A stretch of 57,515 nt of DNA, from positions 1 to 57,515 of the forward strand of contig CANRAC010000001.1 of NCBI GenBank assembly GCA_947628495.1. Direction: 5' to 3'. Below the pieces are notes generated by a model. It was not told where the DNA came from, searched no databases, and worked only from the letters and a program-made list of their open reading frames with translations. Source of the DNA: an uncultured Bacilli bacterium. Lineage in GTDB: Bacteria; Bacillota_I; Bacilli_A; RF39; UBA660. Both the position numbers and the translations under genes were made by a program. Below are positions 11,757-49,468 of this stretch, one piece after another; position 1 is the stretch's first letter; each line of letters opens with the position of its first letter.

Positions 11757-14700
11757 ATGGAAGTAAGAAATAAAGTCGGAAGTGATAGGTCCGATTTGTA
11801 TAGGGGTTCGGGTCAATTAGGTAGTACTTTAGACTACCTAATGTATAACGACCCATCAACCTACTATTATCAAAAATTAAGAAGCACCAATAATCAATAT
11901 CTTAGAGATGACTATTGGTCCGAGGCTGCTAGACGAGGTGAGACTGACCAGCTTTTAGCATCTTTATTAAGCTGGGAGAACTTAGACAGTAATTTACAAG
12001 CAGCTAAAAAAGAGTTAGAAAGTTTCACACAAACTGGTGATGAAGAAAAAGATAACAAAAAGAAAAAAGAGCTTGAAGATAAAGTAAATCATTTGTCAAA
12101 TTTAAATAGCAATTATCTTGACAAAGTTAAAGATTATGCTGATAAAGGTTATGAAGACTATAATACCTATATGCTTGCTATGACTTTACCATTGTTTGAT
12201 GACCCCGAAAAGAAAGAGCGAGTCGATGAAGCATCTGGTTATAACTTCGGCTCGTATACTGATAAAGAATGGGCTGAAAAGGTTCTTGACTCAATTTTTG
12301 AGAGGTATGACGTTCAAATCGCTGAAGCTGAAAAAGAAAATATGAACTGGTTCCAAAAAGTTGGTGCGACAATAGGTTCTGGACTTCTAAGCTTTGTTGG
12401 TGGCGTCGTTAACTTTTTTGGCGATGTTGTTAATTTAGGCGAAGGTATTTTAAATTGTTTCTTCAACTTTAGTGATGATGCTACCTGGAATGACAGGTTC
12501 TTATGGGCATTTAGTGATGAGTCGACTGGGTTCTTTGAACAAGCAGGTGATTTGTTTAATGATATGGCTTATAAAGTAGCGTATGAATCTACTGATATGG
12601 TTAATATGGTTGATGCATATGATGCTGGTTATCGTCCAGCAAGTTGGGAAGGCATGATTTTTGGTACCGACAGAAGTCAAGGCGTTGGAGCAAGTTATAG
12701 AACTTGGGGCAAATGGTGGTCTGGAGCATTCTCTTCAATTGGCTATATGTTGCCATCAATGGTAATTAGTGCTGGAGTCAGTGCAATACCAGGTGGTGCA
12801 GCAATTGCTGGTAAAGTAGGTACTTCAGTATTTTATAGTGGTATCTTTTCAGGTAATATTAGTGATACTGTGAGTGCTGCGGCAAATGAAGGTATAAGTT
12901 ATAAAGACCTTAATGCTGGTGAAGTAGTTTCAAACGGCTTAATTAAGGCCGGCTTACAATGGGCGGTTGAAGTTGCTTTAGGTAAAATCTTAGGTTTTAG
13001 TGGACTAGACCAAGCAATAGGTATCGGTCGTGGCGCTGGTAAATTTGGCAATCTTGTTGGAGGTATGGGTGGTAAACTAGGCGCTATTGGCGTTACTGCA
13101 TTACGAGCCGGCCGTAGTATGGCTAAAGAAGGTCTTGAAGAAGTTTTACAAGATATGTCTGACTCTTTTGTTGATGCTATCTATGGCACAACAAATAGCA
13201 AAATAGCTGACCTATATTCTAGTAGAGCTCTTGAGACTATCAACCCTATGAACTTATTAGAGTCATTTGTTGTTGGTGCCTTAACTGAGGGCGTCATTAG
13301 TAGTTTACAAGGTGTTAAATATATTCTACCTAAAAACCGCGCAGTTCAAACAGATATAGACGGCAATGTTCAAGCTATGGGTTTCTTCCAGACATTAAAC
13401 TTTAATGCTGCTCTAGAAACTATGAATGACTGGAACAACATATTAAATGATAGTAAAGCAACTACAGAGGCTAAAGCTGATGTGGCTATGAAAATGAGTG
13501 CTGCTATCAATACTATTGGTTCCGTTTTAAAAAGCTTTGGACAATCTGATGCACTTAAAGTAAATCAAATACTTGATATCTATGCTGCTGGAGAAAAGAA
13601 AACTGAGTTGCTTGAAAAAGCAAATTTAAGTAACGAACAATATGCTACAAAATTATATGACTCATTCTTAACACATTATGCTGAAGTTGAGCGTAAATAT
13701 GTGCCTAAACCATTAAAAACCAAGATTAAAGAAACATTTGCCAAACTGGCAGATAAGTTTAAAAAGAAAGGTGTGACTGAAGTCAACAATATAATCACTA
13801 ATAAGATTGACGGCAATGACCCAGACGTGCCATTAAAATCAAACAATGTTGAAAACTTTAAAGCAGCACTTGAGAAATTAGGTGCTGAGGCAATTATTGG
13901 TACTAATGGTAATATTATTACTAAATCTGAAGACATTGTTGTTGTACCTAATAAATTGTTAGAGACAGGTGACCTTGCAACCATTATTCAAGGTGTTGCA
14001 TTCGACCAAGTTCAACAGGCCGTCATTAGTGCTTTAAGTCCTGCTCAACGTAAAATGATTGTTAGACAATATGAAAAAGCTACTGGTACTACATGCACTA
14101 CAGAGCAAGCCGTTCAAGCATTATTGTTTGATAAGGCATTCTATACTAGAATATTATTAGCAAGTGAAGAAGGACATAAATATAACGTCGAGGCCTTACA
14201 AGTATTAGCAACAATAAATAAAGTTGTTCAAGCTAAAGCATCTCCGTTATTAAAAAACGGCAAGTTAGCAAATGACGCTTATAATGTTTTAATGCAGAAA
14301 ATTCAAAAGACAATGCAAACCGGTTTAGTTACTTATTGTACTAAATATGCTCGTATTGACTTAGGTGAAATAACAAATGATATATTGTCACCTGAATTAA
14401 AAGAAGTAATTAAAAACCATCAAAATACAATCTTTAGTGAATTTGTCGATGAAGGTATTAAAGATACGAAGACTCAAGCTCCTGACTCTGAGAGGACGAC
14501 AAGGTTTGATACCTATCTTCAAAAGTTTTCGAGTTCATTAAGTGCTGAAGAGATAACAGAGTTAAAACAAAAAGCAAGAAGTACTAATGTTAATGATAGA
14601 GTTGACGCATATACAATGTTAACAGTTTTAAGTAGAAATAGCACTAGTCCTAATGCAACAAAAGATAAACTTGTTTATTTGCCAACTTCTCCAGACGGTA

Positions 14701-17700
14701 TTATTGAGCGTGAACATTTACAAAATGTCGAGAAGTTCTTTGGTCTAACTTGGGCTGAACTTATTTCAGGTAATTATGATGCTTCTAAGATTACTCAAGA
14801 AGGACGTAATTTCATTCAAGCTCAATATGATATGAGTGATAGGGCCTCCAGATTGGCTTGCATAAGAGATGCATTGTTTAATATCTCAGGCGGAACATTA
14901 ACTGTTGGTATGGATGGCTCAATTCTCGAGATAATGGAAAAAGACAAATTTGTTAAAGATAAGTATCTTGGCAAAGAAGGCACTAAAGCCTTTAGAGACG
15001 ATTTACGTAAAGGTGTAATTAAAACTGTTGCTGACGTAGTTAAAGTCGACTTAAAGAATAGTACTATCAAGAATATGAAACTTGTTAGAAGTGACACACT
15101 TAATGGTGCTAAAGGTGCATTTGTCTATGGTGATGACCATATTAGTTTCAGTGCTGGTGCAGACGTTAATACATTTATGCATGAATTAACTCATGTTACT
15201 CAATATGCATTAGATGTCACTGGTCAATCTGCTACTGGCGGTTATGCTGGTATGTTTAAATATATGACACCTGAGGCAGCTAAGTCATTAGACAACTATA
15301 TTGCTGAGAAGTTCCCGCTCACATATAATTATATGGTAAATCATAAAATATCTACTTATAATACTATATACTTTATGTTGGCAGGTGAACTACAAGCAAA
15401 TAGTACACTTGGCACTCATATGTTTGACGTCGGTTTCACATTCGATAAAGCCGGCACAGTTCTTGTTAGTCCAGATGGTAAAGAGCGTTGGAACTTAAAA
15501 GCTAATCAGTCTGATGCTCAAAAACAATTTAGACGAAATGTAGCTAAGGCTCGTCGAGAACTGAGTAAAGAGATTAAAAATCAGCAACAAGCAAATACTA
15601 CTGAAAATACTCAAACTACAAAAGCTACTACTGAAGCTAAAACTGAAACTAAGGCTGCTAGTCAATTAGACGAGAGAACCACTAAAGCATTAGATGAAGT
15701 AGTTAATAAAAATGTAAAGAAGGCAACTCGTGCTACTATCAATCAAGTGAACAATGCTACATTATATAAGGGTATGAATGTAAGTAAAGTCACTGAATTT
15801 GATAATACTAAAGGCAATAAGAAACGTATAGTGTCAAATGCTATATGGCTTACTGACAATAAGAATGTTGCTGAGTCTTATGCTAATAATAAACGAGCTT
15901 CTGCAACTGTTTATGATAGTAAAGTATCTATAAGCAATCCATTAGTCATCGATGCTAAAGGCCAAGCATTCTCTAGTATTATGGGTAACATTACGTCTGA
16001 CCAAATTGCAGTATATGCTCAAGAGCATGGCTATGACTCCCTTGTTATAAAGAATGTTCTTGATATTGGTCCATATTTAGGTAATGTGACTAATAGAGAA
16101 AATAGTATGAAACCAAGTACAGACGTCGTTATATTTGATAAAACTAAAGCAAAGATAACAAATGAAACTAAATACAGTGAGGATGAGACTTTAGACAATT
16201 TAGATAAAGAGTATACTGCTACTAAGCAAGAAGATAGAGGACAATTAGTTGGTGCAAACAAAAAGACTCAAGACGCATTTAATAATTTATCTGAAGATGC
16301 TATTGTTCAAATTATGAATTCAACTTCAGAAGATGTTGATTTAACACCTGAAGAAGAGCAATACGGTCTAGAGTTAGCAAAGGCATTGAAGATTAGACGT
16401 TTAACTCCTAAAGAAGAGTTTGCTCTAATGGGAGTTAAGGCCGAGGACTTTGCTCGAATTGCAGCCAATCAGAGTGATGCAAGTTTGTATCATTTAGCCG
16501 GAGATAGTATTATTGTTGACGTACTTAAAAATATATTCGACAAACTATATACAGATGGCTACTTAACCAAACCTGTTCGTTTAATAGAATTCTTTGCTGG
16601 TTATGGTGCACAAAACTTTGCTCTTGACTATTTAGGTAAAGATTACGAAAGTTGGAAAATTGCTGAATGGGCTGTAAAATCTATTCAAGCTTACAAAGAT
16701 GCTCATCATTCAACTGATACTAAGGACTATGCTGCTAATATGACTAAATCTGAGCTACTAGATTATTTAGTAAATATTGGTGTAAGTCTAAACTACAATA
16801 GTCCGGCAGGTCGTGAGTCTTTAAATACTAAGAGTCTACAAGAGTTAAAAGATATTTACAATAACATTCAGGCCACTCATAACTTAGTCAATATTCAAAA
16901 AGTGACTGGTGAGAGTTTGGAAATCACTGACACAGATAGTCATGATTATGTATTAACCTATTCGTTCCCTTGTCAAGATTTATCTCGGGCTGGTAAACGA
17001 GCGGGTATGCACGGTCAAGATACTTCTACTGGTACTCAGTTATCTTTGTTTGAAACAATTGAAAATGCTAGTCAAATCGAAACTCAAACACGTAGTGGTC
17101 TATTATGGGAAGTCGACAGAATATTAAAAGAGTTGTATGATGCTGACAAACCATTGCCTCAAGTACTTATAATGGAGAATGTGCCTGAAGTGCATAACTC
17201 TGTTAATAGGACTGACTTCAAACAATGGTTATCTAATCTACAAAAATATGGTTATACTAATAGTTATACTGATATAAAAGGTAGTGATTATGGTATACCA
17301 CAAAAACGTGTTAGAACTATTATGGTAAGTACTTTAAATAATAAAGCATTTACTTTCCCAGCTAAACAACAATTAAAGTCGTCTATGATGGACTATCTAG
17401 ACAAGAATGTTGATAACAAATATTACTTAACTGATAAACAAGCTAGAACATTTATGAGCTATCGTGAGTCATTTGATAATAATAAAACTACTCATCCAAT
17501 CAATACAAGTATAGCCTCTACTTTGACTACTAAACAGGAGAAGCGAGCTCAAGGTGGTAACTTCTATAGTCCACTTGTTGATAATGACGTCGACTTATAT
17601 GATTTGTTACACCCAACTAAGAATAGTGTACAAAATACTATTGATGCTTTAAATCAAGTCAAAGCTGGTCAAAAGATAACTGCTAGTCAACAAAAAATGT

Positions 17701-20700
17701 GGAGTGAGGATCGTGATTTAAGTCTAAATAAAAATTCTCGTCGTAGAAATAAAATGACTCAAGAAGAATTAAATAAATATAACCGGGACAGATATATTAC
17801 TAATAAAGAAGCACGCAAGTCTAACTTGAAATACTATATTCAAAAAGGCGTTACTATTAGATTACATCCAGGTGTCGCAGCATTTGTTGAAGCAACTACT
17901 CACGATTTTACAAAATTACCAACTATATTGCAAAATAAAATAGTTTCAGGAAAATTACTTTATAGTGATATTCTTGACTATATTAACACTGCAGCAAATA
18001 TGGATGATTATACATTTAAGGCAATTGCTAAATATGTGTTTAATAATGAACGACTTGCCAAATTGGATGTTAAAACATTACTTAAATTAGAAGACAGCTT
18101 GCATGAATTTGCTATGGCTGCATATTTGACTAAAGAACCTGATAAATATTTAACACCTAAACAAATGGCAGATACTTATAAAGAAGTTATTGCAAATAGT
18201 AGTCCTGAAAAAATCGAATGGGCTCAAAAATTTACGGAAAATATAGTACGAACTGATAGAGGTGGACACAATAAATATATCGAAGCAATACCACAAACAA
18301 ATCAGCTCAATGAGTCATTCTTTAAAAAGTATGATGGCACATTAGCTGGTATGCGTGAAATAAATAATTTGGCTAAAGCTGTTGCTAACATATATGATAC
18401 TCATCAAGTAGCTCGAGAAAATCAAAAAACTGCTACAGTTGAATATGACTATAGCACTACCGTAATTATTAAGAAAAATGACGACATTTCTAAAACGCTA
18501 GATAGTATTGATAAAGTTGAGAAGATGAATACTATTGAAGCTTATTATACAGATGTATTGATTAAACGTTTACAAGAAAAAATGGCAACTGAAGGTATTC
18601 GACCTGATAAAGAAGCAGTAATTGCTTTGAGACGTAAAATCGACGACATGGTTGATGATTTAGATAAATTGTCCGACACTGAACTTAATGCTAAATATCT
18701 AGAAGTATTAAATCAGAATAGTCAACAAAAGAAAAGTCTATCTGCTGTTACTGCTACAGCTACAATGCAAAGAACACCATATGAAGAACAAGAACGTTCA
18801 ATAAAAAATATTAAAGATACGTTTAGAGGCGTTGGTCGTACAATGACTCGTTGGCTTAAAAGTACCGAAGATGCTACTGATACTGAAAGGTTCTATAATA
18901 GATTGCCTGACAATATTAAGAAATGGTTTGACCCAAATAATGGTTATAAGCTAGTTTCAGATTATTATAAACTAAGTAAACAAGAAATTCTCGACTTACA
19001 AAGTAAAATACAAGCCGCTCGTGACCAAGTGAAACATTGGGTGAAAGCTGAAGAAGCTACTAAAGTTGCACTTAAAAAAAGTAAAGAACGTTTGTCAAAA
19101 CTACAAAAAGAATATAAAACATATCGTGAAAAAACTGAGGCTACTTTGAAAGAGAATAAAACCTTACGTCAAAAGGTACAAGTTGAGCACGTAGTTCGTA
19201 TTGAGGGCACTAATGTTACAAGTAGTTCTCCATCAAACCGTGTTGTTGAAGAGATATTAAAGACTAGCTGGAATAAGAAACGTATGGGCGAAGTACAAGA
19301 GCTTGATAATAATATTGAGCATGCAGTGGCTAATGCAAATACGTTCTTTAAAGAAAATGCTAATACTTTATTGTCAGCAAGCACGACAGAACTTGAAGAA
19401 GCTATTGCATTCTTTGCTAATAATACTACTAAGTTGACTGAAGACGAATTTGCTCGATTTAATGCTTTAAGAACTTACTTCTTTGGTTGGGTGCTTGAAG
19501 CAAATAAGAATGGACAAATTACTCTTAATGCAAATCTTAAACAACAAGTAAACAATATTATGCGTAATATGGCATCTAACTATGGTACTGGTTTGGCTGT
19601 GTGGAATAATATTCGACAAAGGTTAAATCCATTAGATAGTATGCGTTCGCAAGATATTGAGGTTGGTGGTATCACCCTTAATGACGACTTAAAAGACAAG
19701 TTGTTTGATGCTATTGAGTCTAATGATGTTGACGTAATGACTAAAACATATGAAGAGATTACTGAGTGGCTTGACGAACAACAATCTAGCAAGAAGGGTG
19801 TATTAAGACGTATAGTCGGCGTGCGCTCAATGGCTATGTTGTCTTCTCCACTTACTTGGTTAAGAAATAAAATGTCTAACTTTATGTTAAAACGTTTAAA
19901 TACATTATCTAGTAAAATAGGTAATGCAATGTTTAAAGGTAAAACTATGGCTGGACAGTTGAAGATGAACCAACAAGTAACTCCTGAAATACAAAAGTTT
20001 ATTACTGACAATATTATTGATAACGGTTTCTTTGACACATTTGTATCTAACTTGTCTAAGTTTAATGTAAGTGATATTGTTGCTAAAAACCAAAATAAGA
20101 TTGCTAAAGGCGAAACTTTGACTAGAGAAGAGATTACTACTCACTTAGTTCTCAAAGCAATTTACAATGAATACTATAACAATAATATGTTTAAGTCTAA
20201 ATTGTTAAATGACTTGCATAAGAATTTAATGAAGGTGATGAGTGATGACTCTTATGTGCGTGAAGCTGCTGTAAGGTATTTTGGTAAGATATTAGCTGAA
20301 AAGAAATATAGTCTCAAAGATGGCAAAATGACTGATGCTATAATGAATGACTTCTCAACTGCTATTGGTCTTGCACTTAATGACTATATGCACTCTGACA
20401 ACTTCTTCAACAATGTTGAACGTTGGTTATCTGATAGAAGTGAGCTTGGTTGGTTTGCTTATAAATTGATAATGCCTTATGCTGCATCATCTTGGAACTG
20501 GTTTAAGGCTGCTATAAGATATAGTCCTATTGGTCTTGGTCGTGCTATTTATAGAATAACTCACCTTGAACAACAGGTGGCTAAAGCCGAAGCAGATTAT
20601 ATCGCAGGTAAATCTAATGTATCTCCTGAACTTACAGAATACTTAATTCGCCGCGACTTAGGCTCTGGTGTAATTGGTACTGTGGCTATGGGACTTGGTG

Positions 20701-21629
20701 CATTACTTGCCGGTCTTGGCTTTATGCGACTTGAGGATGACGACTATGGTAAGCCTAAACTTCACATTGGTAATCTTGTTATTGACGTATCTGACATATT
20801 TGGTAGTTCTAGTGTTCTGGCTGGTGCTGCATTTGTTACCGGTATACAAGAGAAAGGTTGGACTTGGGAAGGTGTGCTAGATGCTTTGAATAGATTAGCA
20901 GATGTGACTATTGACGATTTACCAGTTATGGACATTGTTCAAATGGACATGTACTCTAATGGTTCATTCGATATGGGTCTTAATCAACTTGAGAGTATTG
21001 CATTAAGCTTTATACCTAATATCTTAAGCTGGTTTGCTGGTCTAACTTATACTGGCACTCTGAACAAACAGACATTCTTAGATAGAGCACTAGCTAAAAT
21101 ACCATTTGCCGCTAGATTAGTCGAAAAGAAGGTTGACCCTTATACTGGCAAGACTGACTCTTGGGCTGATTGGGTAGGACGTGCTGTTCCTTACTTCAGC
21201 TGGGATGCTGCATCTCAAAATGAACGTAAGACTACAGCATTAGGTTTAACTAAGACTATGCTTCGTGGACAGTATAAAGTTAATGGTGAAGACTTTAATG
21301 TTACAGGTAAAGACTTGACTGAAATCAATAAGACTTATGGTACTTTAAATGCTGAAGACTTAACTAAGTTCTATGAAAATAAATTAGCTGTTTCTGTTAA
21401 ACAAGAAAATGGCAAATATAAAACAATGACCTATAATCAAATGACCACTAAGCAACGACAGAATGCTGTATCAAGTATTATGCAAAATAATGCTGACCTT
21501 GTTAAGATTATTGCTTGGCTCAAAGCTGGTAATAAATATTACGCATCAAGCACTATTTATAATAAACTTGTTAAGTTAGGTATTACTAAAAATCTATATC
21601 GTGGCTCTAAAGGCTTTGTTAAAGGTTAA
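11757..21629 (+). CDS. giant polyvalent (multidomain, probably virion-packaged/ejected) protein, 3290 aa
   Basis: Single uninterrupted ORF with SD TAGGAGGTAAA-ATG. Has Gly-rich hydrophobic segments near the N-terminus (SGLLSFVGGVVNFFG; SMVISAGVSAIPGGAAIAG) and the C-terminus (VIGTVAMGLGALLAGLGF). Internal HELTH zincin motif, ART-like domain and C5-MTase motifs. Confidence 0.7.
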   Translation: MEVRNKVGSDRSDLYRGSGQLGSTLDYLMYNDPSTYYYQKLRSTNNQYLRDDYWSEAARRGETDQLLASLLSWENLDSNLQAAKKELESFTQTGDEEKDNKKKKELEDKVNHLSNLNSNYLDKVKDYADKGYEDYNTYMLAMTLPLFDDPEKKERVDEASGYNFGSYTDKEWAEKVLDSIFERYDVQIAEAEKENMNWFQKVGATIGSGLLSFVGGVVNFFGDVVNLGEGILNCFFNFSDDATWNDRFLWAFSDESTGFFEQAGDLFNDMAYKVAYESTDMVNMVDAYDAGYRPASWEGMIFGTDRSQGVGASYRTWGKWWSGAFSSIGYMLPSMVISAGVSAIPGGAAIAGKVGTSVFYSGIFSGNISDTVSAAANEGISYKDLNAGEVVSNGLIKAGLQWAVEVALGKILGFSGLDQAIGIGRGAGKFGNLVGGMGGKLGAIGVTALRAGRSMAKEGLEEVLQDMSDSFVDAIYGTTNSKIADLYSSRALETINPMNLLESFVVGALTEGVISSLQGVKYILPKNRAVQTDIDGNVQAMGFFQTLNFNAALETMNDWNNILNDSKATTEAKADVAMKMSAAINTIGSVLKSFGQSDALKVNQILDIYAAGEKKTELLEKANLSNEQYATKLYDSFLTHYAEVERKYVPKPLKTKIKETFAKLADKFKKKGVTEVNNIITNKIDGNDPDVPLKSNNVENFKAALEKLGAEAIIGTNGNIITKSEDIVVVPNKLLETGDLATIIQGVAFDQVQQAVISALSPAQRKMIVRQYEKATGTTCTTEQAVQALLFDKAFYTRILLASEEGHKYNVEALQVLATINKVVQAKASPLLKNGKLANDAYNVLMQKIQKTMQTGLVTYCTKYARIDLGEITNDILSPELKEVIKNHQNTIFSEFVDEGIKDTKTQAPDSERTTRFDTYLQKFSSSLSAEEITELKQKARSTNVNDRVDAYTMLTVLSRNSTSPNATKDKLVYLPTSPDGIIEREHLQNVEKFFGLTWAELISGNYDASKITQEGRNFIQAQYDMSDRASRLACIRDALFNISGGTLTVGMDGSILEIMEKDKFVKDKYLGKEGTKAFRDDLRKGVIKTVADVVKVDLKNSTIKNMKLVRSDTLNGAKGAFVYGDDHISFSAGADVNTFMHELTHVTQYALDVTGQSATGGYAGMFKYMTPEAAKSLDNYIAEKFPLTYNYMVNHKISTYNTIYFMLAGELQANSTLGTHMFDVGFTFDKAGTVLVSPDGKERWNLKANQSDAQKQFRRNVAKARRELSKEIKNQQQANTTENTQTTKATTEAKTETKAASQLDERTTKALDEVVNKNVKKATRATINQVNNATLYKGMNVSKVTEFDNTKGNKKRIVSNAIWLTDNKNVAESYANNKRASATVYDSKVSISNPLVIDAKGQAFSSIMGNITSDQIAVYAQEHGYDSLVIKNVLDIGPYLGNVTNRENSMKPSTDVVIFDKTKAKITNETKYSEDETLDNLDKEYTATKQEDRGQLVGANKKTQDAFNNLSEDAIVQIMNSTSEDVDLTPEEEQYGLELAKALKIRRLTPKEEFALMGVKAEDFARIAANQSDASLYHLAGDSIIVDVLKNIFDKLYTDGYLTKPVRLIEFFAGYGAQNFALDYLGKDYESWKIAEWAVKSIQAYKDAHHSTDTKDYAANMTKSELLDYLVNIGVSLNYNSPAGRESLNTKSLQELKDIYNNIQATHNLVNIQKVTGESLEITDTDSHDYVLTYSFPCQDLSRAGKRAGMHGQDTSTGTQLSLFETIENASQIETQTRSGLLWEVDRILKELYDADKPLPQVLIMENVPEVHNSVNRTDFKQWLSNLQKYGYTNSYTDIKGSDYGIPQKRVRTIMVSTLNNKAFTFPAKQQLKSSMMDYLDKNVDNKYYLTDKQARTFMSYRESFDNNKTTHPINTSIASTLTTKQEKRAQGGNFYSPLVDNDVDLYDLLHPTKNSVQNTIDALNQVKAGQKITASQQKMWSEDRDLSLNKNSRRRNKMTQEELNKYNRDRYITNKEARKSNLKYYIQKGVTIRLHPGVAAFVEATTHDFTKLPTILQNKIVSGKLLYSDILDYINTAANMDDYTFKAIAKYVFNNERLAKLDVKTLLKLEDSLHEFAMAAYLTKEPDKYLTPKQMADTYKEVIANSSPEKIEWAQKFTENIVRTDRGGHNKYIEAIPQTNQLNESFFKKYDGTLAGMREINNLAKAVANIYDTHQVARENQKTATVEYDYSTTVIIKKNDDISKTLDSIDKVEKMNTIEAYYTDVLIKRLQEKMATEGIRPDKEAVIALRRKIDDMVDDLDKLSDTELNAKYLEVLNQNSQQKKSLSAVTATATMQRTPYEEQERSIKNIKDTFRGVGRTMTRWLKSTEDATDTERFYNRLPDNIKKWFDPNNGYKLVSDYYKLSKQEILDLQSKIQAARDQVKHWVKAEEATKVALKKSKERLSKLQKEYKTYREKTEATLKENKTLRQKVQVEHVVRIEGTNVTSSSPSNRVVEEILKTSWNKKRMGEVQELDNNIEHAVANANTFFKENANTLLSASTTELEEAIAFFANNTTKLTEDEFARFNALRTYFFGWVLEANKNGQITLNANLKQQVNNIMRNMASNYGTGLAVWNNIRQRLNPLDSMRSQDIEVGGITLNDDLKDKLFDAIESNDVDVMTKTYEEITEWLDEQQSSKKGVLRRIVGVRSMAMLSSPLTWLRNKMSNFMLKRLNTLSSKIGNAMFKGKTMAGQLKMNQQVTPEIQKFITDNIIDNGFFDTFVSNLSKFNVSDIVAKNQNKIAKGETLTREEITTHLVLKAIYNEYYNNNMFKSKLLNDLHKNLMKVMSDDSYVREAAVRYFGKILAEKKYSLKDGKMTDAIMNDFSTAIGLALNDYMHSDNFFNNVERWLSDRSELGWFAYKLIMPYAASSWNWFKAAIRYSPIGLGRAIYRITHLEQQVAKAEADYIAGKSNVSPELTEYLIRRDLGSGVIGTVAMGLGALLAGLGFMRLEDDDYGKPKLHIGNLVIDVSDIFGSSSVLAGAAFVTGIQEKGWTWEGVLDALNRLADVTIDDLPVMDIVQMDMYSNGSFDMGLNQLESIALSFIPNILSWFAGLTYTGTLNKQTFLDRALAKIPFAARLVEKKVDPYTGKTDSWADWVGRAVPYFSWDAASQNERKTTALGLTKTMLRGQYKVNGEDFNVTGKDLTEINKTYGTLNAEDLTKFYENKLAVSVKQENGKYKTMTYNQMTTKQRQNAVSSIMQNNADLVKIIAWLKAGNKYYASSTIYNKLVKLGITKNLYRGSKGFVKG
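15180..15194 (+). other. HExxH zincin metalloprotease motif (HELTH, aa 1142-1146 of the giant protein)
   Basis: FMHELTHVTQY read directly. The frame was checked against the 11757 start. Confidence 0.5.
15753..16145 (+). other. ART-like (ADP-ribosyltransferase-like, polyvalent-protein type) domain, aa ~1333-1463
   Basis: NATLYKGM...IWLTDNKNVAESYA...SNPLVIDAKG...HGYDSLVIKNV...DVVIFD follows the strand/motif pattern I associate with ART domains of polyvalent proteins. Assigned by eye only. Confidence 0.35.
16395..17575 (+). other. C5-cytosine DNA methyltransferase domain with permuted motif order (IX-X-I-IV-VI-VIII-TRD), aa ~1547-1940
   Basis: Motifs in order: RRLTPKEEFALMGV (IX), LAGDSIIVDVLKNIF (X-like), IEFFAGYGAQ (I), YSFPCQDLSRAGKRAG (IV, catalytic Cys at 16971-16973), IMENVPEV (VI), GIPQKRVRTIMVS (VIII), ASTLTTKQ (TRD-like). 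Confidence 0.75.
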
Positions 21630-45520: not shown

Positions 45521-47299
45521 ATGGCGAAAACGCTAACTCAATTTCAGAAGGAATTTGGTTATCCATTGTTAACAAATGCGGAAGTACGAGCGGTACGAGA
45601 GTCAAAAGTGAACTGGAATGGACTTGATGGAGAAATAATACGACGTAAATGTATGAAAAGCTACCCTGCGTATTGCCAAACCGTAAATTTCGGTTATCAG
45701 ATGACGCCTTATCATTACTCTTTGACTGCGAACTTGCAGAGGGACTATGAGAAAGGACCCAATCCGGGCATGCCTTATGGACTTATCTTGTTGTCCGCGA
45801 GCCCACAAACTGGTAAATCTTTGTCAGTGACTGAGACGTTTCAGAGTTGGGTTTTGACTAAGAACCCGCGACTATCAGTTTTGACACTGGGCTATGAGTC
45901 AACGTTCGCTTCTAGGTTTGGTCGTAGAAATCGTGAGAAATTTGGTGAGTATGCTCCGATACTTACTCACGGAAAAGTTAAACTTCACGATAAGATACAG
46001 AGCACAGAAGCTTGGGAGACGATGGTTCTTGATCAGAATAATGGTTTATTTGTTTCAACCGGCGGTGGTATGAGTACAGCAGGTATGGGTGGTCCTATTA
46101 CTGGTAAAACAGGTAATGTTGTTGTAGTAGACGACCCGATAAAGAACATGCAGGATGCAGATAGTGAAGTTAAGATAGTGACAAATATCGAGTACTATCA
46201 GTCAGCTATCGAAACACGTCTATTAGGTAATCCAGGTTCGTTGTGTATCGTAATGTGTACTAGATGGGTGCCAAGTGACCTGATCGGATGGCTAAGAAGG
46301 AACCGAAAGAAATACATTGTAGGTGACTACAATTATGCAGCACTTTGTACTGAGACAAATAAGGCTTTAGACCCGTTGGGTCGAGAAGTTGGCGAAGGTA
46401 TTTGTCCTGAGATGGGCAAAGACTCAAACTGGGCACAGATTATTAAAGAGAGCTATACAGCATCACAAGGTGCTCACGTGTATAATGCACTGTTCCAGGG
46501 TGAACCGACGGATGAGCAAGGAAACTTATTTAGGACCGAGGATTGGCAAGAGTATGAAATCGACAAAGTCTGGAAGCCTGACAAATTTGATAGAATTTAT
46601 TTGTCAATAGATGCTACTTTTAAAGACAACAAAGAGAATGACTTTGTTGCTATGAAGGTAGGTGGTATTATGGCTGGCTCTGACTATGCCCGATACTTAG
46701 TCAGAAAACGTATGGATTTGCCTGATACGCTTGACAAAATTCTTAAAGTTTGTCGAATGTTTCCGGAGATTGACGTTATTTATATTGAAGATAAAGCTAA
46801 TGGTCCTGGTATAGTTTCTGTTCTTAGAAAATGGCGCAAGAAGTTGAATATTCAAGAAGAAAACTTCCCGAGTGTCTACCCGTTGGAGCCTGAAGGTGGT
46901 AAATACTCACGAGCACAGACAGCGTCGCCTTTCCAGCGTGAAGGACGTTGCTATATACCTTGTGAAAAAGATGCTCACTTGTTCTCGAGTCCGGATGACT
47001 TTGAGTGGGAAGAAGAGGGCATATCGTATACTCAGGCATTTAAGCATGAACTTGGCACATTCCCATTTGGAGCTAATGATGACTTAGTCGATGCTCATAC
47101 GCAAGCAATAAATAAGAACATACCTTTGTTAACAGGAGAAGAAAAGCCTGAGAAGCGCATAGAGCGCTTTACGTACTATTCTAATTGGTGGCCTGAGATG
47201 TGGGATGATTATAATAAGCTAGAGACCCGAGAGGAGCGTGATGCTTTTATAAAAATGCACGGTGCACCAATGGAATGGAAAACTAGAGTAGGAGGTTAA
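45521..47299 (+). CDS. terL: terminase large subunit
   Basis: Walker A LLSASPQTGKS and Walker B NVVVVDDP. C-terminal RNase-H-like acidic residues (LSIDATFK, YIEDKANG, GANDDLVDA). Confidence 0.85.
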   Translation: MAKTLTQFQKEFGYPLLTNAEVRAVRESKVNWNGLDGEIIRRKCMKSYPAYCQTVNFGYQMTPYHYSLTANLQRDYEKGPNPGMPYGLILLSASPQTGKSLSVTETFQSWVLTKNPRLSVLTLGYESTFASRFGRRNREKFGEYAPILTHGKVKLHDKIQSTEAWETMVLDQNNGLFVSTGGGMSTAGMGGPITGKTGNVVVVDDPIKNMQDADSEVKIVTNIEYYQSAIETRLLGNPGSLCIVMCTRWVPSDLIGWLRRNRKKYIVGDYNYAALCTETNKALDPLGREVGEGICPEMGKDSNWAQIIKESYTASQGAHVYNALFQGEPTDEQGNLFRTEDWQEYEIDKVWKPDKFDRIYLSIDATFKDNKENDFVAMKVGGIMAGSDYARYLVRKRMDLPDTLDKILKVCRMFPEIDVIYIEDKANGPGIVSVLRKWRKKLNIQEENFPSVYPLEPEGGKYSRAQTASPFQREGRCYIPCEKDAHLFSSPDDFEWEEEGISYTQAFKHELGTFPFGANDDLVDAHTQAINKNIPLLTGEEKPEKRIERFTYYSNWWPEMWDDYNKLETREERDAFIKMHGAPMEWKTRVGG

Positions 47300-49468
47300 A
47301 TGGAAGTAAATAATGACTCTAAAGTAATTCATCCTAATGTTAAAGATAGTAGAGTTTTAACCTACCTAAACATTAGAAATAAACCGACGTATGTAAATAC
47401 TGAGGAAGAAAACATATTGTTAAACTTGTGGCGAGAAAAGTACTATCAAGCTAAGAGCGAATATGAGAGAAGTAGGTGCAATAGCACACAGGTTAAATTG
47501 TGGAGAAATGCATTTTCTGGCACATTCTACAAGCTAGATGAGAATAATAAACCAACACAGAATATAATGAAGCCAATTCGTAAGTTGGCATTTGAGTTGG
47601 TTGAAGGTAAAGTGAATAGCAGTATTCCTGCACCTAAAATGTCACCTAGGTATCATGCGGATTTGACTCCAGTAAATGCTACAGAGCACTTAATTCAGCA
47701 CGAAATTGATAAAATGTTGTCTGAGCAGGTCAACGATGAGTCGGAACATAACTGTTTGATTGATGGAGCAAGCTGGTTTAAAGTCACTTGGGACCCATTT
47801 GATAACACACATGAACGTTCTGGCAACCCAAAAGTGTATGCTTGTCCAGTTGATACAGTTTACCCTCAGCCTGGAGTGAAAAACTATAAGGAATTGGAGT
47901 ACATTTTTGAGGTTTCAACGCTAACTGTTGCTCAGTGTTTAGACCTGTATAATCGAGAGATTAAAAGTCCAGATGAAAATGATATTATACCTGTTATAAA
48001 TTGCTACTTTTTGAATGAAGACAGGTATGTTGGCAAATTTACTTGGTGCGAAGAGACCTCTCAGGTCATTTGCAATGACTTAGAGTGGGGTATTCGTAAA
48101 CGCAGAGAGTGCACAGAGTGCCATAATCCGGCACCAATTCAGACAGTTTGTCCTGTTTGTGGCTCAAAGCACTTTAAATATGTGCCTGTTGCAACAGAGA
48201 CGCTTGAGGATGACTTAGTTTATGTTACTAACCCATATCGTGTTGGTAAAACTGAGGATGAGACTCAAGATAATAACCAAGAAGACGAGCAAAAAGCTAT
48301 ACCGGCCGGCACAGAACTGCCACACTACTTAATTCGCCAGTTGCCATTTGTACCTTATCGTAGGGTAAGCGTACCTGGCAGCATTTATGGTATGAGCGAA
48401 GTTGAATTAGTACTAGAAACACAAGATATAATCAATAAATTGTTAAATAAAGCAGAGCGAAAAAGTGCTCGTAGTAAAACACTTGTTACAAAACTTAAAG
48501 ATACTCGCGTGAGCGACAAGAGCGATGAGCTTTCTTATGTTGAAGTAGAGAGCCCACAGGAAGGACAATCTATACAAGTTAAACAAGTTATGTCTGATAT
48601 TAGTGAAGAGATAACTCAGGCTCAGGTATTGTATGAGATTGCTAAATCTACTGTTGGTACGACCGATACGGACCAAGGTAAAAATGACCCTTCTGCTCGT
48701 TCAGGTAAAGCAAAACAATTGCAAATGCAAGCTTCTGCACAGCGTAAAGTAGCACCAGATACGCTTCGTAACTTAGCATTTTCAGGAGTTTATGAGTTAA
48801 TCTTTAAAAATTTGTTAGCATACTCAGATGAGAGCAGGTCCTTTGTGACTTTATTGCCAGACGGCACTAAACGTGAGGAAGTTTGGTCAAAATATATGTT
48901 CTTGTCAGAGGACTCGCATGGTGAGTATTACTATAGAGATGACTTTGCTTGGTCAGTTGACACTGCTACTGAGATTACTCAAGACAGAGCAGCAATGTGG
49001 CAATTGATTGATAATGACTTTATTAACGGCACAATGGGAACTCAGATCGACCCACAACGTGCATTAAAAATGTATTGGCAAATGAAAGAGCAATTTGGCT
49101 ATCCAACCGCAAAATATGCATTGGAGTTCTTAGATGAAGGTCAGAAGCACTTGCCTACACAAGTAGAACAAGCATTAGTAAATGACCCAGAAGCATTGCA
49201 AGTTGCTTTACAATTTATGCAAAACAAACAGCAAATGATGGGCTTAGGCGGAAATAGTTCAACTCTTGGTGGCAACCAAGGTGGACGTTCAGCAAATGGT
49301 CAATCACACGCTGCAAATGTCGAAAAGACAAATAATAAAAATCGTGCTCAGTCTGGTGCAGGAGAAACGACTACTGTAGCTACTGCTCAAGGTGGTATGC
49401 AAGGTGGAACAGCGACTCCTGAAACGAGTCGACAGACAAATAGCACAAGTACACAGGAGGCAAAATGA
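47300..49468 (+). CDS. portal protein (putative) with an internal 4-Cys zinc-ribbon insertion
   Basis: 722-aa ORF immediately after terL. CTEC...CPVC at 48110-48160. Gln/Gly/Thr-rich C-terminal tail. Confidence 0.65.
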   Translation: MEVNNDSKVIHPNVKDSRVLTYLNIRNKPTYVNTEEENILLNLWREKYYQAKSEYERSRCNSTQVKLWRNAFSGTFYKLDENNKPTQNIMKPIRKLAFELVEGKVNSSIPAPKMSPRYHADLTPVNATEHLIQHEIDKMLSEQVNDESEHNCLIDGASWFKVTWDPFDNTHERSGNPKVYACPVDTVYPQPGVKNYKELEYIFEVSTLTVAQCLDLYNREIKSPDENDIIPVINCYFLNEDRYVGKFTWCEETSQVICNDLEWGIRKRRECTECHNPAPIQTVCPVCGSKHFKYVPVATETLEDDLVYVTNPYRVGKTEDETQDNNQEDEQKAIPAGTELPHYLIRQLPFVPYRRVSVPGSIYGMSEVELVLETQDIINKLLNKAERKSARSKTLVTKLKDTRVSDKSDELSYVEVESPQEGQSIQVKQVMSDISEEITQAQVLYEIAKSTVGTTDTDQGKNDPSARSGKAKQLQMQASAQRKVAPDTLRNLAFSGVYELIFKNLLAYSDESRSFVTLLPDGTKREEVWSKYMFLSEDSHGEYYYRDDFAWSVDTATEITQDRAAMWQLIDNDFINGTMGTQIDPQRALKMYWQMKEQFGYPTAKYALEFLDEGQKHLPTQVEQALVNDPEALQVALQFMQNKQQMMGLGGNSSTLGGNQGGRSANGQSHAANVEKTNNKNRAQSGAGETTTVATAQGGMQGGTATPETSRQTNSTSTQEAK

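Follow-up and report, generated by a model that had tools for sequence, protein, structure and literature searches.

The named and characterized members of the M.BssHII group of circularly permuted C5-cytosine DNA methyltransferases are restriction-modification methylases. Permutation in this enzyme family has so far been treated as a textbook oddity, with a few restriction-modification enzymes as examples, all of them cut on one side of the target-recognition domain (TRD). The natural examples comprise M.BssHII, M.Alw26I, M2.Eco31I, M.Esp3I, and M2.BsaI, together with 22 more from REBASE (Slaska-Kiss et al., 2018, PMC5944983). In the S5 dataset of that study, the PSxT[IV]T element of the TRD lies N-terminal of motif IX in these 27 enzymes, except in M.EsaSS471P, which starts at motif IX, and all 27 have ~50–90 aa after motif VIII (PMC5944983). 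The same authors engineered a permuted enzyme, cp332M.MpeI, which starts at residue 332, four residues before motif IX, and is active in vivo (scored “++”; PMC5944983). A separate body of work concerns the polyvalent proteins of phages and conjugative elements, for which packaging and entry together with the DNA have been proposed (Iyer et al., 2017, PMC5512222); in the main text of that paper the methylase modules are N6-adenine enzymes coupled to superfamily 2 (SF2) helicases, and neither C5 methylases nor permutation are mentioned. Here we describe a C5-cytosine methyltransferase domain that touches on both subjects. It lies in a giant open reading frame (ORF; positions 11757–21629, + strand, 9,873 bases, 3,290 aa) of contig CANRAC010000001.1 from an uncultured Bacilli bacterium, and the window that we analyzed (57,515 nucleotides) is the whole of this 57.5 kb phage-like contig. 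An earlier note, made from the sequence alone, had recognized a permuted enzyme at an interval that the ORF list and translation place within this frame. We conclude, with good though not complete confidence based on sequence, model, and analogy, that the domain is likely to be a genuine C5-cytosine DNA methyltransferase that is circularly permuted and probably active, and that it forms a single cassette within a giant phage protein of the polyvalent type.

Along the 3,290 aa protein the domain reads IX-X-I-IV-V-VI-VIII-TRD, which puts its break, compared with ordinary enzymes, between the TRD and motif IX. The catalytic and cofactor motifs of C5 methyltransferases, namely I (FxGxG), IV (the Cys of PCQ), VI (ENV), VIII (QxRxR), and X, are all present, and they are invariant or nearly so in 15 aligned giant proteins of this kind (hereafter, giants). 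The canonical linear order from I to X is absent, which is the permutation itself; the PF00145 family (C5-cytosine DNA methylase) is known to include permuted members. The parts of the domain, with the evidence for each, are as follows.

16332..17693, + strand: folded methyltransferase domain, ~aa 1526–1979 (AlphaFold2 model; top Foldseek match M.MpeI, 4dkj)
16326..16346, + strand: SEDVDLT peptide, aa 1524–1530, at the N-terminal edge of the cassette (pattern search)
16350..16388, + strand: extra N-terminal helix before motif IX, aa 1532–1544 (model helix 7–19, block predicted local distance difference test score (pLDDT) 81–94; conservation low, 0.26)
16395..16436, + strand: motif IX, RRLTPKEEFALMGV, aa 1547–1560 (aligned to M.MpeI 336–349; within the PF00145 271–322 match)
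16488..16547, + strand: motif X helix, YHLAGDSIIVDVLKNIFDKL, aa 1578–1597 (aligned to M.MpeI IAGNSIPVKILEAIFNTL)
16548..16574, + strand: X-to-I junction, YTDGYLTKP, joining a canonical C-terminal end to a canonical N-terminal start
16575..16613, + strand: motif I, VRLIEFFAGYGAQ, aa 1607–1619, the loop that binds S-adenosylmethionine (AdoMet) (F, G, Y, and G invariant)
16956..16994, + strand: motif IV, TYSFPCQDLSRAG, aa 1734–1746, with the catalytic Cys1739 (Y, S, F, P, C, Q, D, and S identical in all 15 aligned rows)
17010..17087, + strand: lineage-specific insertion in the catalytic loop, aa 1752–1777 (alignments; identity 0.21)
17088..17126, + strand: motif V, TRSGLLWEVDRIL, with the TRSGLLWEV start, aa 1778–1790 (TRS invariant)
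17160..17192, + strand: motif VI, QVLIMENVPEV, with Glu1807 (E and N invariant)
17286..17330, + strand: motif VIII, DYGIPQKRVRTIMVS, PQKRVRT, with Arg1851 and Arg1853 (P, Q, R, and R invariant)
17331..17591, + strand: target-recognition domain, aa 1859–1945 (alignments; confidently modeled, and the most variable folded part)
17592..17693, + strand: C-terminal extension, DLYDLLHPTK plus a helix at aa 1957–1971 (model helices 424–427 and 431–445, block pLDDT ~90; no match to the IX/X profile)
17703..17723, + strand: SEDRDLS peptide, aa 1983–1989, just past the folded domain (the flanking motif again)

Several searches bear on this order. The whole protein scores 105 bits against PF00145, and the excised region 132 bits (cut-off 22). 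Residues 1525–1600, taken alone, match positions 271–322 of the 324 in the PF00145 model at 23.3 bits, which is above the cut-off, while aa 1946–2148, beyond the TRD, give no PF00145 match at E ≤ 10. Against the chains of the PDB, phmmer returned the CpG methylase M.MpeI (4dkj) as the best match, with aa 1605–1906 aligned to M.MpeI 9–288; a weaker second alignment (independent E-value 0.19) put the IX/X stretch on M.MpeI 335–388. A IX-X profile built from 239 canonical relatives matched the giant protein once, at aa 1542–1597 (E 1e-28), and neither the rest of the protein (E ≤ 100) nor the window translated in six frames gave a second match (best other E 1.6). Every motif that the earlier note had quoted was found in its place, IX and X immediately preceding motif I, and its statement that neither recurs after the TRD agreed with the profile and Pfam searches downstream, where a canonical IX/X was looked for and gave no match. 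The identification as a C5-cytosine methyltransferase likewise holds, from the PF00145 score, the motifs, and the fold.

Other details of the note needed amendment. It had taken the GDS of motif X as a departure from GNS; the domain does have Asp1583 at the position where most families have Asn, but GDS is the norm of this subfamily, being found in 194 of the 239 canonical relatives, with GNS in 17. It had also seen an insertion of about 28 aa after motif IV. The insertion is real, but its length is 21 aa when measured against the nearest canonical relatives (26 vs. 5 residues between GM and TRS), and it is lineage-specific: it occurs in some giants only, is absent or shorter in most homologues, and is absent in P0014 and P0016–P0020. 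The catalytic loop that contains it (aa 1741–1780) has a pLDDT below 50 and is predicted to be disordered. Finally, the region assigned to the enzyme was right, while its limits were set too narrowly for the fold, which extends over ~aa 1526–1979 (16332–17693). Two short segments were considered as relics of a displaced motif and were rejected. DLYDLLHPTK and the helix that follows it (aa 1946–1971), which might be compared with the RKLHPRE peptide of M.HhaI, were not aligned by MAFFT with IX of canonical relatives, and neither the IX-X profile nor Pfam matched them. DLTPEEE, just upstream of motif IX, was considered as a degenerate IX or TL relic; HMMER pairs it with the TLT of M.MpeI, at an independent E-value of 0.19 for the whole stretch, which is too weak.

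The permuted arrangement is shared by the relatives of the giant protein. We found 19 giant homologues (3,093–3,789 aa; 38–64% identity in the domain region), and all 19 are collinear across IX-X-I…TRD. Mean pairwise identities, calculated by segment for 14 non-redundant giants, were 0.66 for motif IX and 0.67 for motif X, comparable to the range of 0.64–0.89 for motifs I, IV, V, VI, and VIII (I, 0.83; IV, 0.89; V, 0.73; VIII, 0.69). The TRD was at 0.32, the flanking segments at 0.22–0.26, and the stretch just downstream at 0.08. The residues that do not vary across the 15 aligned rows are those classically involved in catalysis and cofactor binding. Judged from these identities (0.66–0.67 vs. 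0.22–0.26 in the flanks), the moved IX-X segment appears to be under purifying selection. Within the otherwise variable TRD, an N....A.TLTT element (aa 1916–1925, with STLTT at aa 1921–1925) is conserved.

An AlphaFold2 model of aa 1525–1995, computed with a 15-sequence alignment, had a mean pLDDT of 84.4 and a predicted template modeling score (pTM) of 0.83. The ten-residue blocks from IX to X (model residues 11–50 and 61–80) were at pLDDT 94–97, with the block of the IX-X loop at 89, and just the aa 1741–1780 loop and the tail past ~aa 1979 were disordered. Foldseek placed M.MpeI 4dkj first (E 9e-15) and M.HhaI next (E 1e-8), so that the model has the two-domain fold of M.HhaI and M.MpeI. 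As we picture it, the chain would run from motif IX through the X helix and a junction of 7–8 residues into motif I, and then through the catalytic motifs IV–VIII into a complete TRD. In the fold, IX would sit in the small domain and X would pack beside motif I at the AdoMet pocket. The predicted chemistry is the standard one, with attack of Cys1739 on C6 and methyl transfer from AdoMet. Two entries of the BFVD structure database also came up. A0A8S5PZD8 (462 aa, “Siphoviridae sp. ctMOb8”) gave a structural alignment of 414 columns, which exceeds that of every canonical enzyme, and A0A8S5V6E6 (1,154 aa), annotated as a DNA polymerase, matched the methylase model over 402 columns; the two may be permuted relatives, or fragments of such, under generic or wrong names.

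Four points weigh against our conclusion and are set out together here. The Foldseek TM-scores are modest (0.46–0.55); the alignment is sequential and cannot take in the permuted part, and the view that IX and X should lie at their usual places in the fold draws on the confidence scores of the model, not on superposition. The 21 aa insertion, predicted to be disordered, falls within the catalytic loop. As to delivery with the virion, which is discussed below, the argument for packaging comes from gene position and domain company, and Pfam and PHROGs searches of the neighboring late genes identified no virion protein other than terminase and portal.

We then considered where such an arrangement might have come from. 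A search of 1.84 billion representatives returned 7,078 relatives, and the top 150, together with the giants, were reclassified by the position of IX-X relative to the core. In that set 124 of the 145 relatives with a readable order were canonical, 20 were permuted (18 giants, P0021, and P0045), and 21 were unclassifiable; P0021 (368 aa) could be a fragment. The best 120 stand-alone relatives from a word-indexed search are all canonical, at 44–53% identity, and the canonical relatives overall share 44–56% identity with the domain. Canonical relatives end in ...VL..IF..ML and begin with M-(10–20 aa)-KPIRLIELFAGYG, that is, where X ends and I starts in the giants. The X-to-I join of the giants reads ...VLKNIFDKL-YTDGYLT-KPVRLIEFFAGYG, which is a head-to-tail fusion. 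The junction consists of one canonical C-terminal end and the N-terminal start of another. As the most likely route, we suggest that tandem methyltransferase genes were fused head-to-tail and that the outer parts were then lost, or that an out-of-register segment of a tandem methyltransferase pair was captured. A single origin of the giants' domains was not rejected (approximately unbiased (AU) test, p = 0.86).

Candidates for the intermediate steps can be found in other phages. Bacillus phage Deep Blue (L001 2519–2830) has three adjacent methyltransferase genes, of which the first two share a frame and are one stop codon apart, exactly at the X|I boundary, and a tblastn match spans this junction; loss of that stop codon would give a fusion in X-to-I order. 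P0045 (592 aa; L004 10001–11779), a complete gene, occupies a central position on a 56 kb phage contig, among replication-type genes, and adjoins an N6/N4 methylase and a SAM-synthetase-N-like gene at the one locus inspected. When its own best relatives were collected (115 clusters, P0045 included), 87 were stand-alone permuted enzymes with IX-X upstream of motif I. They form a family of ~420–950 aa proteins on phage contigs of roughly 53–60 kb, some with Pfam matches to inteins or LAGLIDADG. The P0045-like proteins belong to the same subfamily as the giants' domain (HLAGDSIVV in motif X, a long I–IV region) and have IX-X fused to motif I, but they differ in having TRD-like modules at either end, ahead of IX and past VIII, and in an X-to-I linker that is longer and of another sequence. 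Placing the giants' domain and the P0045-like proteins in one clade was not rejected either (AU p = 0.90), the quick free trees being poorly optimized. The Deep Blue genes, the P0045 family, and the giant's domain are thus candidate stages of a route by duplication, fusion, and truncation. The abundance of the P0045-like family also means that the earlier note's view of permuted C5 methyltransferases as rare does not hold for phage metagenomes. Among the canonical relatives, P0022 (803 aa), P0031, and P0046 have long variable regions with at least two tandem TL-type modules, and several in P0022, which resemble those of the multispecific methylases of Bacillus phages.

The surroundings of the domain give an idea of what it might do. 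The giant ORF closes the late arm on the + strand, which has terminase and portal at its head; the DNA polymerase and primase are on the opposite strand. The ORF contains two Pfam families, PF00145 and ART-PolyVal (PF18760), and in addition an HExxH motif, in a region that had no Pfam match. The relevant features are these.

45521..47299, + strand block: terminase large subunit (PHROGs)
47300..49468, + strand block: portal (PHROGs)
15759..16064, + strand: ART-PolyVal, an ADP-ribosyltransferase-like domain, aa 1335–1436 (Pfam PF18760, 32.8 bits, cut-off 31.2)
15174..15197, + strand: HExxH motif FMHELTHV, aa 1140–1147, a possible zincin peptidase (motif-level evidence; H, E, and H nearly invariant in the giants' alignment)

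With PF00145, PF18760, and HExxH, the protein combines several unrelated enzyme domains in one giant polypeptide of a terminase/portal phage, as polyvalent proteins do. Embedding in a giant phage protein of the polyvalent type, as the earlier note had proposed, is therefore borne out by the ART-PolyVal match and the HExxH motif, while the virion location that it assumed, and the methylation early in DNA entry that it proposed, are suppositions from this setting. The domain is the sole match in the contig to PF00145, PF01555, and PF02086, and a megablast of the region against phage records gave no match. The contig is binned with a 1.06 Mb genome of 145 contigs (G000, 88% complete) that has no other PF00145 match, and the giant ORF is open under translation table 11.

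The gene lies at the end of the arm led by terminase and portal, beside ART-PolyVal and HExxH, and we therefore expect the enzyme to be made late and probably to be packaged. Its role would be to protect the phage DNA from host restriction, before packaging, on entry, or both. Protection from restriction is the most economical reading of the setting, in which activity, target sequence, packaging, and timing are all presumed. The composition of the window (35.6% G+C) offered some indication of restriction pressure. GATC is strongly avoided, with 26 sites seen against 111 expected (observed/expected ratio (O/E) 0.23), as are CATG (98 vs. 199; O/E 0.49) and ATTAAT (8 vs. 43; O/E 0.19). The odds for CpG are 0.70, and CCGG shows some enrichment. 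The pattern suggests that the host restricts DNA at GATC and CATG and that the phage copes by avoiding these sites rather than by methylating them, and the site-avoidance analysis of the window indicated no protected C-containing site as the target.

The reading of the function that competes best with entry-time protection is that the domain is an ordinary late-acting methylase, which would methylate progeny DNA in the infected cell before packaging, its embedding being incidental and without any role at entry. A product of a late-arm gene would be present during DNA packaging; moreover, the closest relatives are stand-alone enzymes on phage-sized contigs, and the P0045 locus lies among replication-type genes. 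The same facts are nevertheless compatible with action at entry too, and ART-PolyVal and HExxH modules are typical companions in proteins for which delivery together with the DNA has been proposed (PMC5512222). We give this alternative appreciable weight, without favoring it. Far less probable, in our opinion, is a decayed tandem pair, in which the N-terminal IX-X would be the leftover of a lost upstream copy and the downstream domain an inactive DNA-binding or structural module. In-frame tandem methyltransferase genes do exist in phages, as the tblastn match across such a junction in Deep Blue illustrates. However, a leftover is difficult to reconcile with the identity of 0.66–0.67 that IX and X retain across the giants while the flanks fall to 0.22–0.26, with the invariance of the catalytic residues, with an IX-X segment modeled at pLDDT 94–97 within one body (pTM 0.83), or with the fact that the identical topology is active when engineered into M.MpeI. 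A different target, either host DNA or RNA as for Dnmt2, strikes us as very improbable: Dnmt2 structures are among the fold matches, and polyvalent proteins carry many host-directed enzymes, but by far the nearest relatives (44–56% identity) are M.MpeI-type DNA cytosine methylases from phages, and a full TRD with its TL element is present.

The two SED peptides at the edges of the cassette deserve a separate comment. The pattern SED.[DPV]L[TS] has just two matches in the 3,290 residues, SEDVDLT and SEDRDLS, which bracket the cassette (0.002 expected per shuffle); the pattern was defined post hoc, after the peptides had been seen. A looser pattern, SE[DE]xx[LIV], has five matches where 0.35 would be expected, at aa 724, 1474, and 1512 besides the two peptides; four of the five lie in linkers that surround the cassette. 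P0003 has counterparts at both places (SEDVPLT and SEDRVLT). The peptides could be joints of the cassette, or cleavage sites for the HExxH module. A bolder version of our conclusion would combine these points: the domain would be the first natural member of a second permutation class, defined by the TRD|IX break so far known from engineered M.MpeI only, and, with SED.DL[ST] peptides on either side, would form a cassette that can be excised from a giant protein delivered by the virion, methylating the incoming genome before restriction, whether released or tethered. Taken as a whole, we regard this version as unlikely.

How, then, does the domain compare with the permuted enzymes already described? 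The earlier note had named M.BssHII as the precedent, and the likeness holds insofar as motif I comes after IX and X, and the variable region contains the break. The side of the TRD does not agree. In the M.BssHII group (Type H), the TRD element and a variable region of ~100 aa are N-terminal of IX, whereas here the whole TRD comes after VIII: downstream of VIII there are ~105 folded residues and TLTT (aa 1922–1925), and IX is preceded by a linker of low conservation and a single helix. The setting differs as well, the domain being a cassette inside a phage polyvalent protein. The arrangement that does match is that of cp332M.MpeI, which has the identical motif order, IX-X-I…VIII-TRD, and a new N-terminus only a few residues before IX; Arg1547-Arg1548 of motif IX in the giant align with R336-Y337 of M.MpeI, which is the closest solved homologue of the domain by both phmmer and Foldseek. 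In contrast to the giant's domain, cp332M.MpeI is a laboratory construct in which the native ends were fused directly. To this the natural domain adds helices at both termini, the 21 aa loop insertion, and a surrounding protein of 3,290 aa, and its TRD can be aligned with that of M.MpeI just over the first ~40 residues of the variable region. By these analogies, the giant's domain is a different cut from that of M.BssHII, and one whose viability has been shown experimentally in the closest solved homologue. Nature would thus appear to use the other cut too, which had earlier been shown to be viable by protein engineering alone.

The permutation itself is known; what is new here is the TRD|IX break and its embedding in a polyvalent protein. 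Annotation pipelines label such proteins as plain cytosine methyltransferases, and their domain boundaries may be mis-set. Compared with the polyvalent proteins, of which DarB of phage P1 is an example, the giant is alike in being a multi-enzyme protein of a terminase/portal phage with ART-PolyVal and HExxH, and a DNA methylase module in such proteins has been proposed to protect incoming DNA (PMC5512222). It differs in that its methylase is a C5 enzyme, where the modules described in that study are N6-adenine enzymes. An active cassette that enters together with the DNA would be a C5 equivalent of the idea put forward for P1 DarB, in which the incoming DNA is protected in cis.

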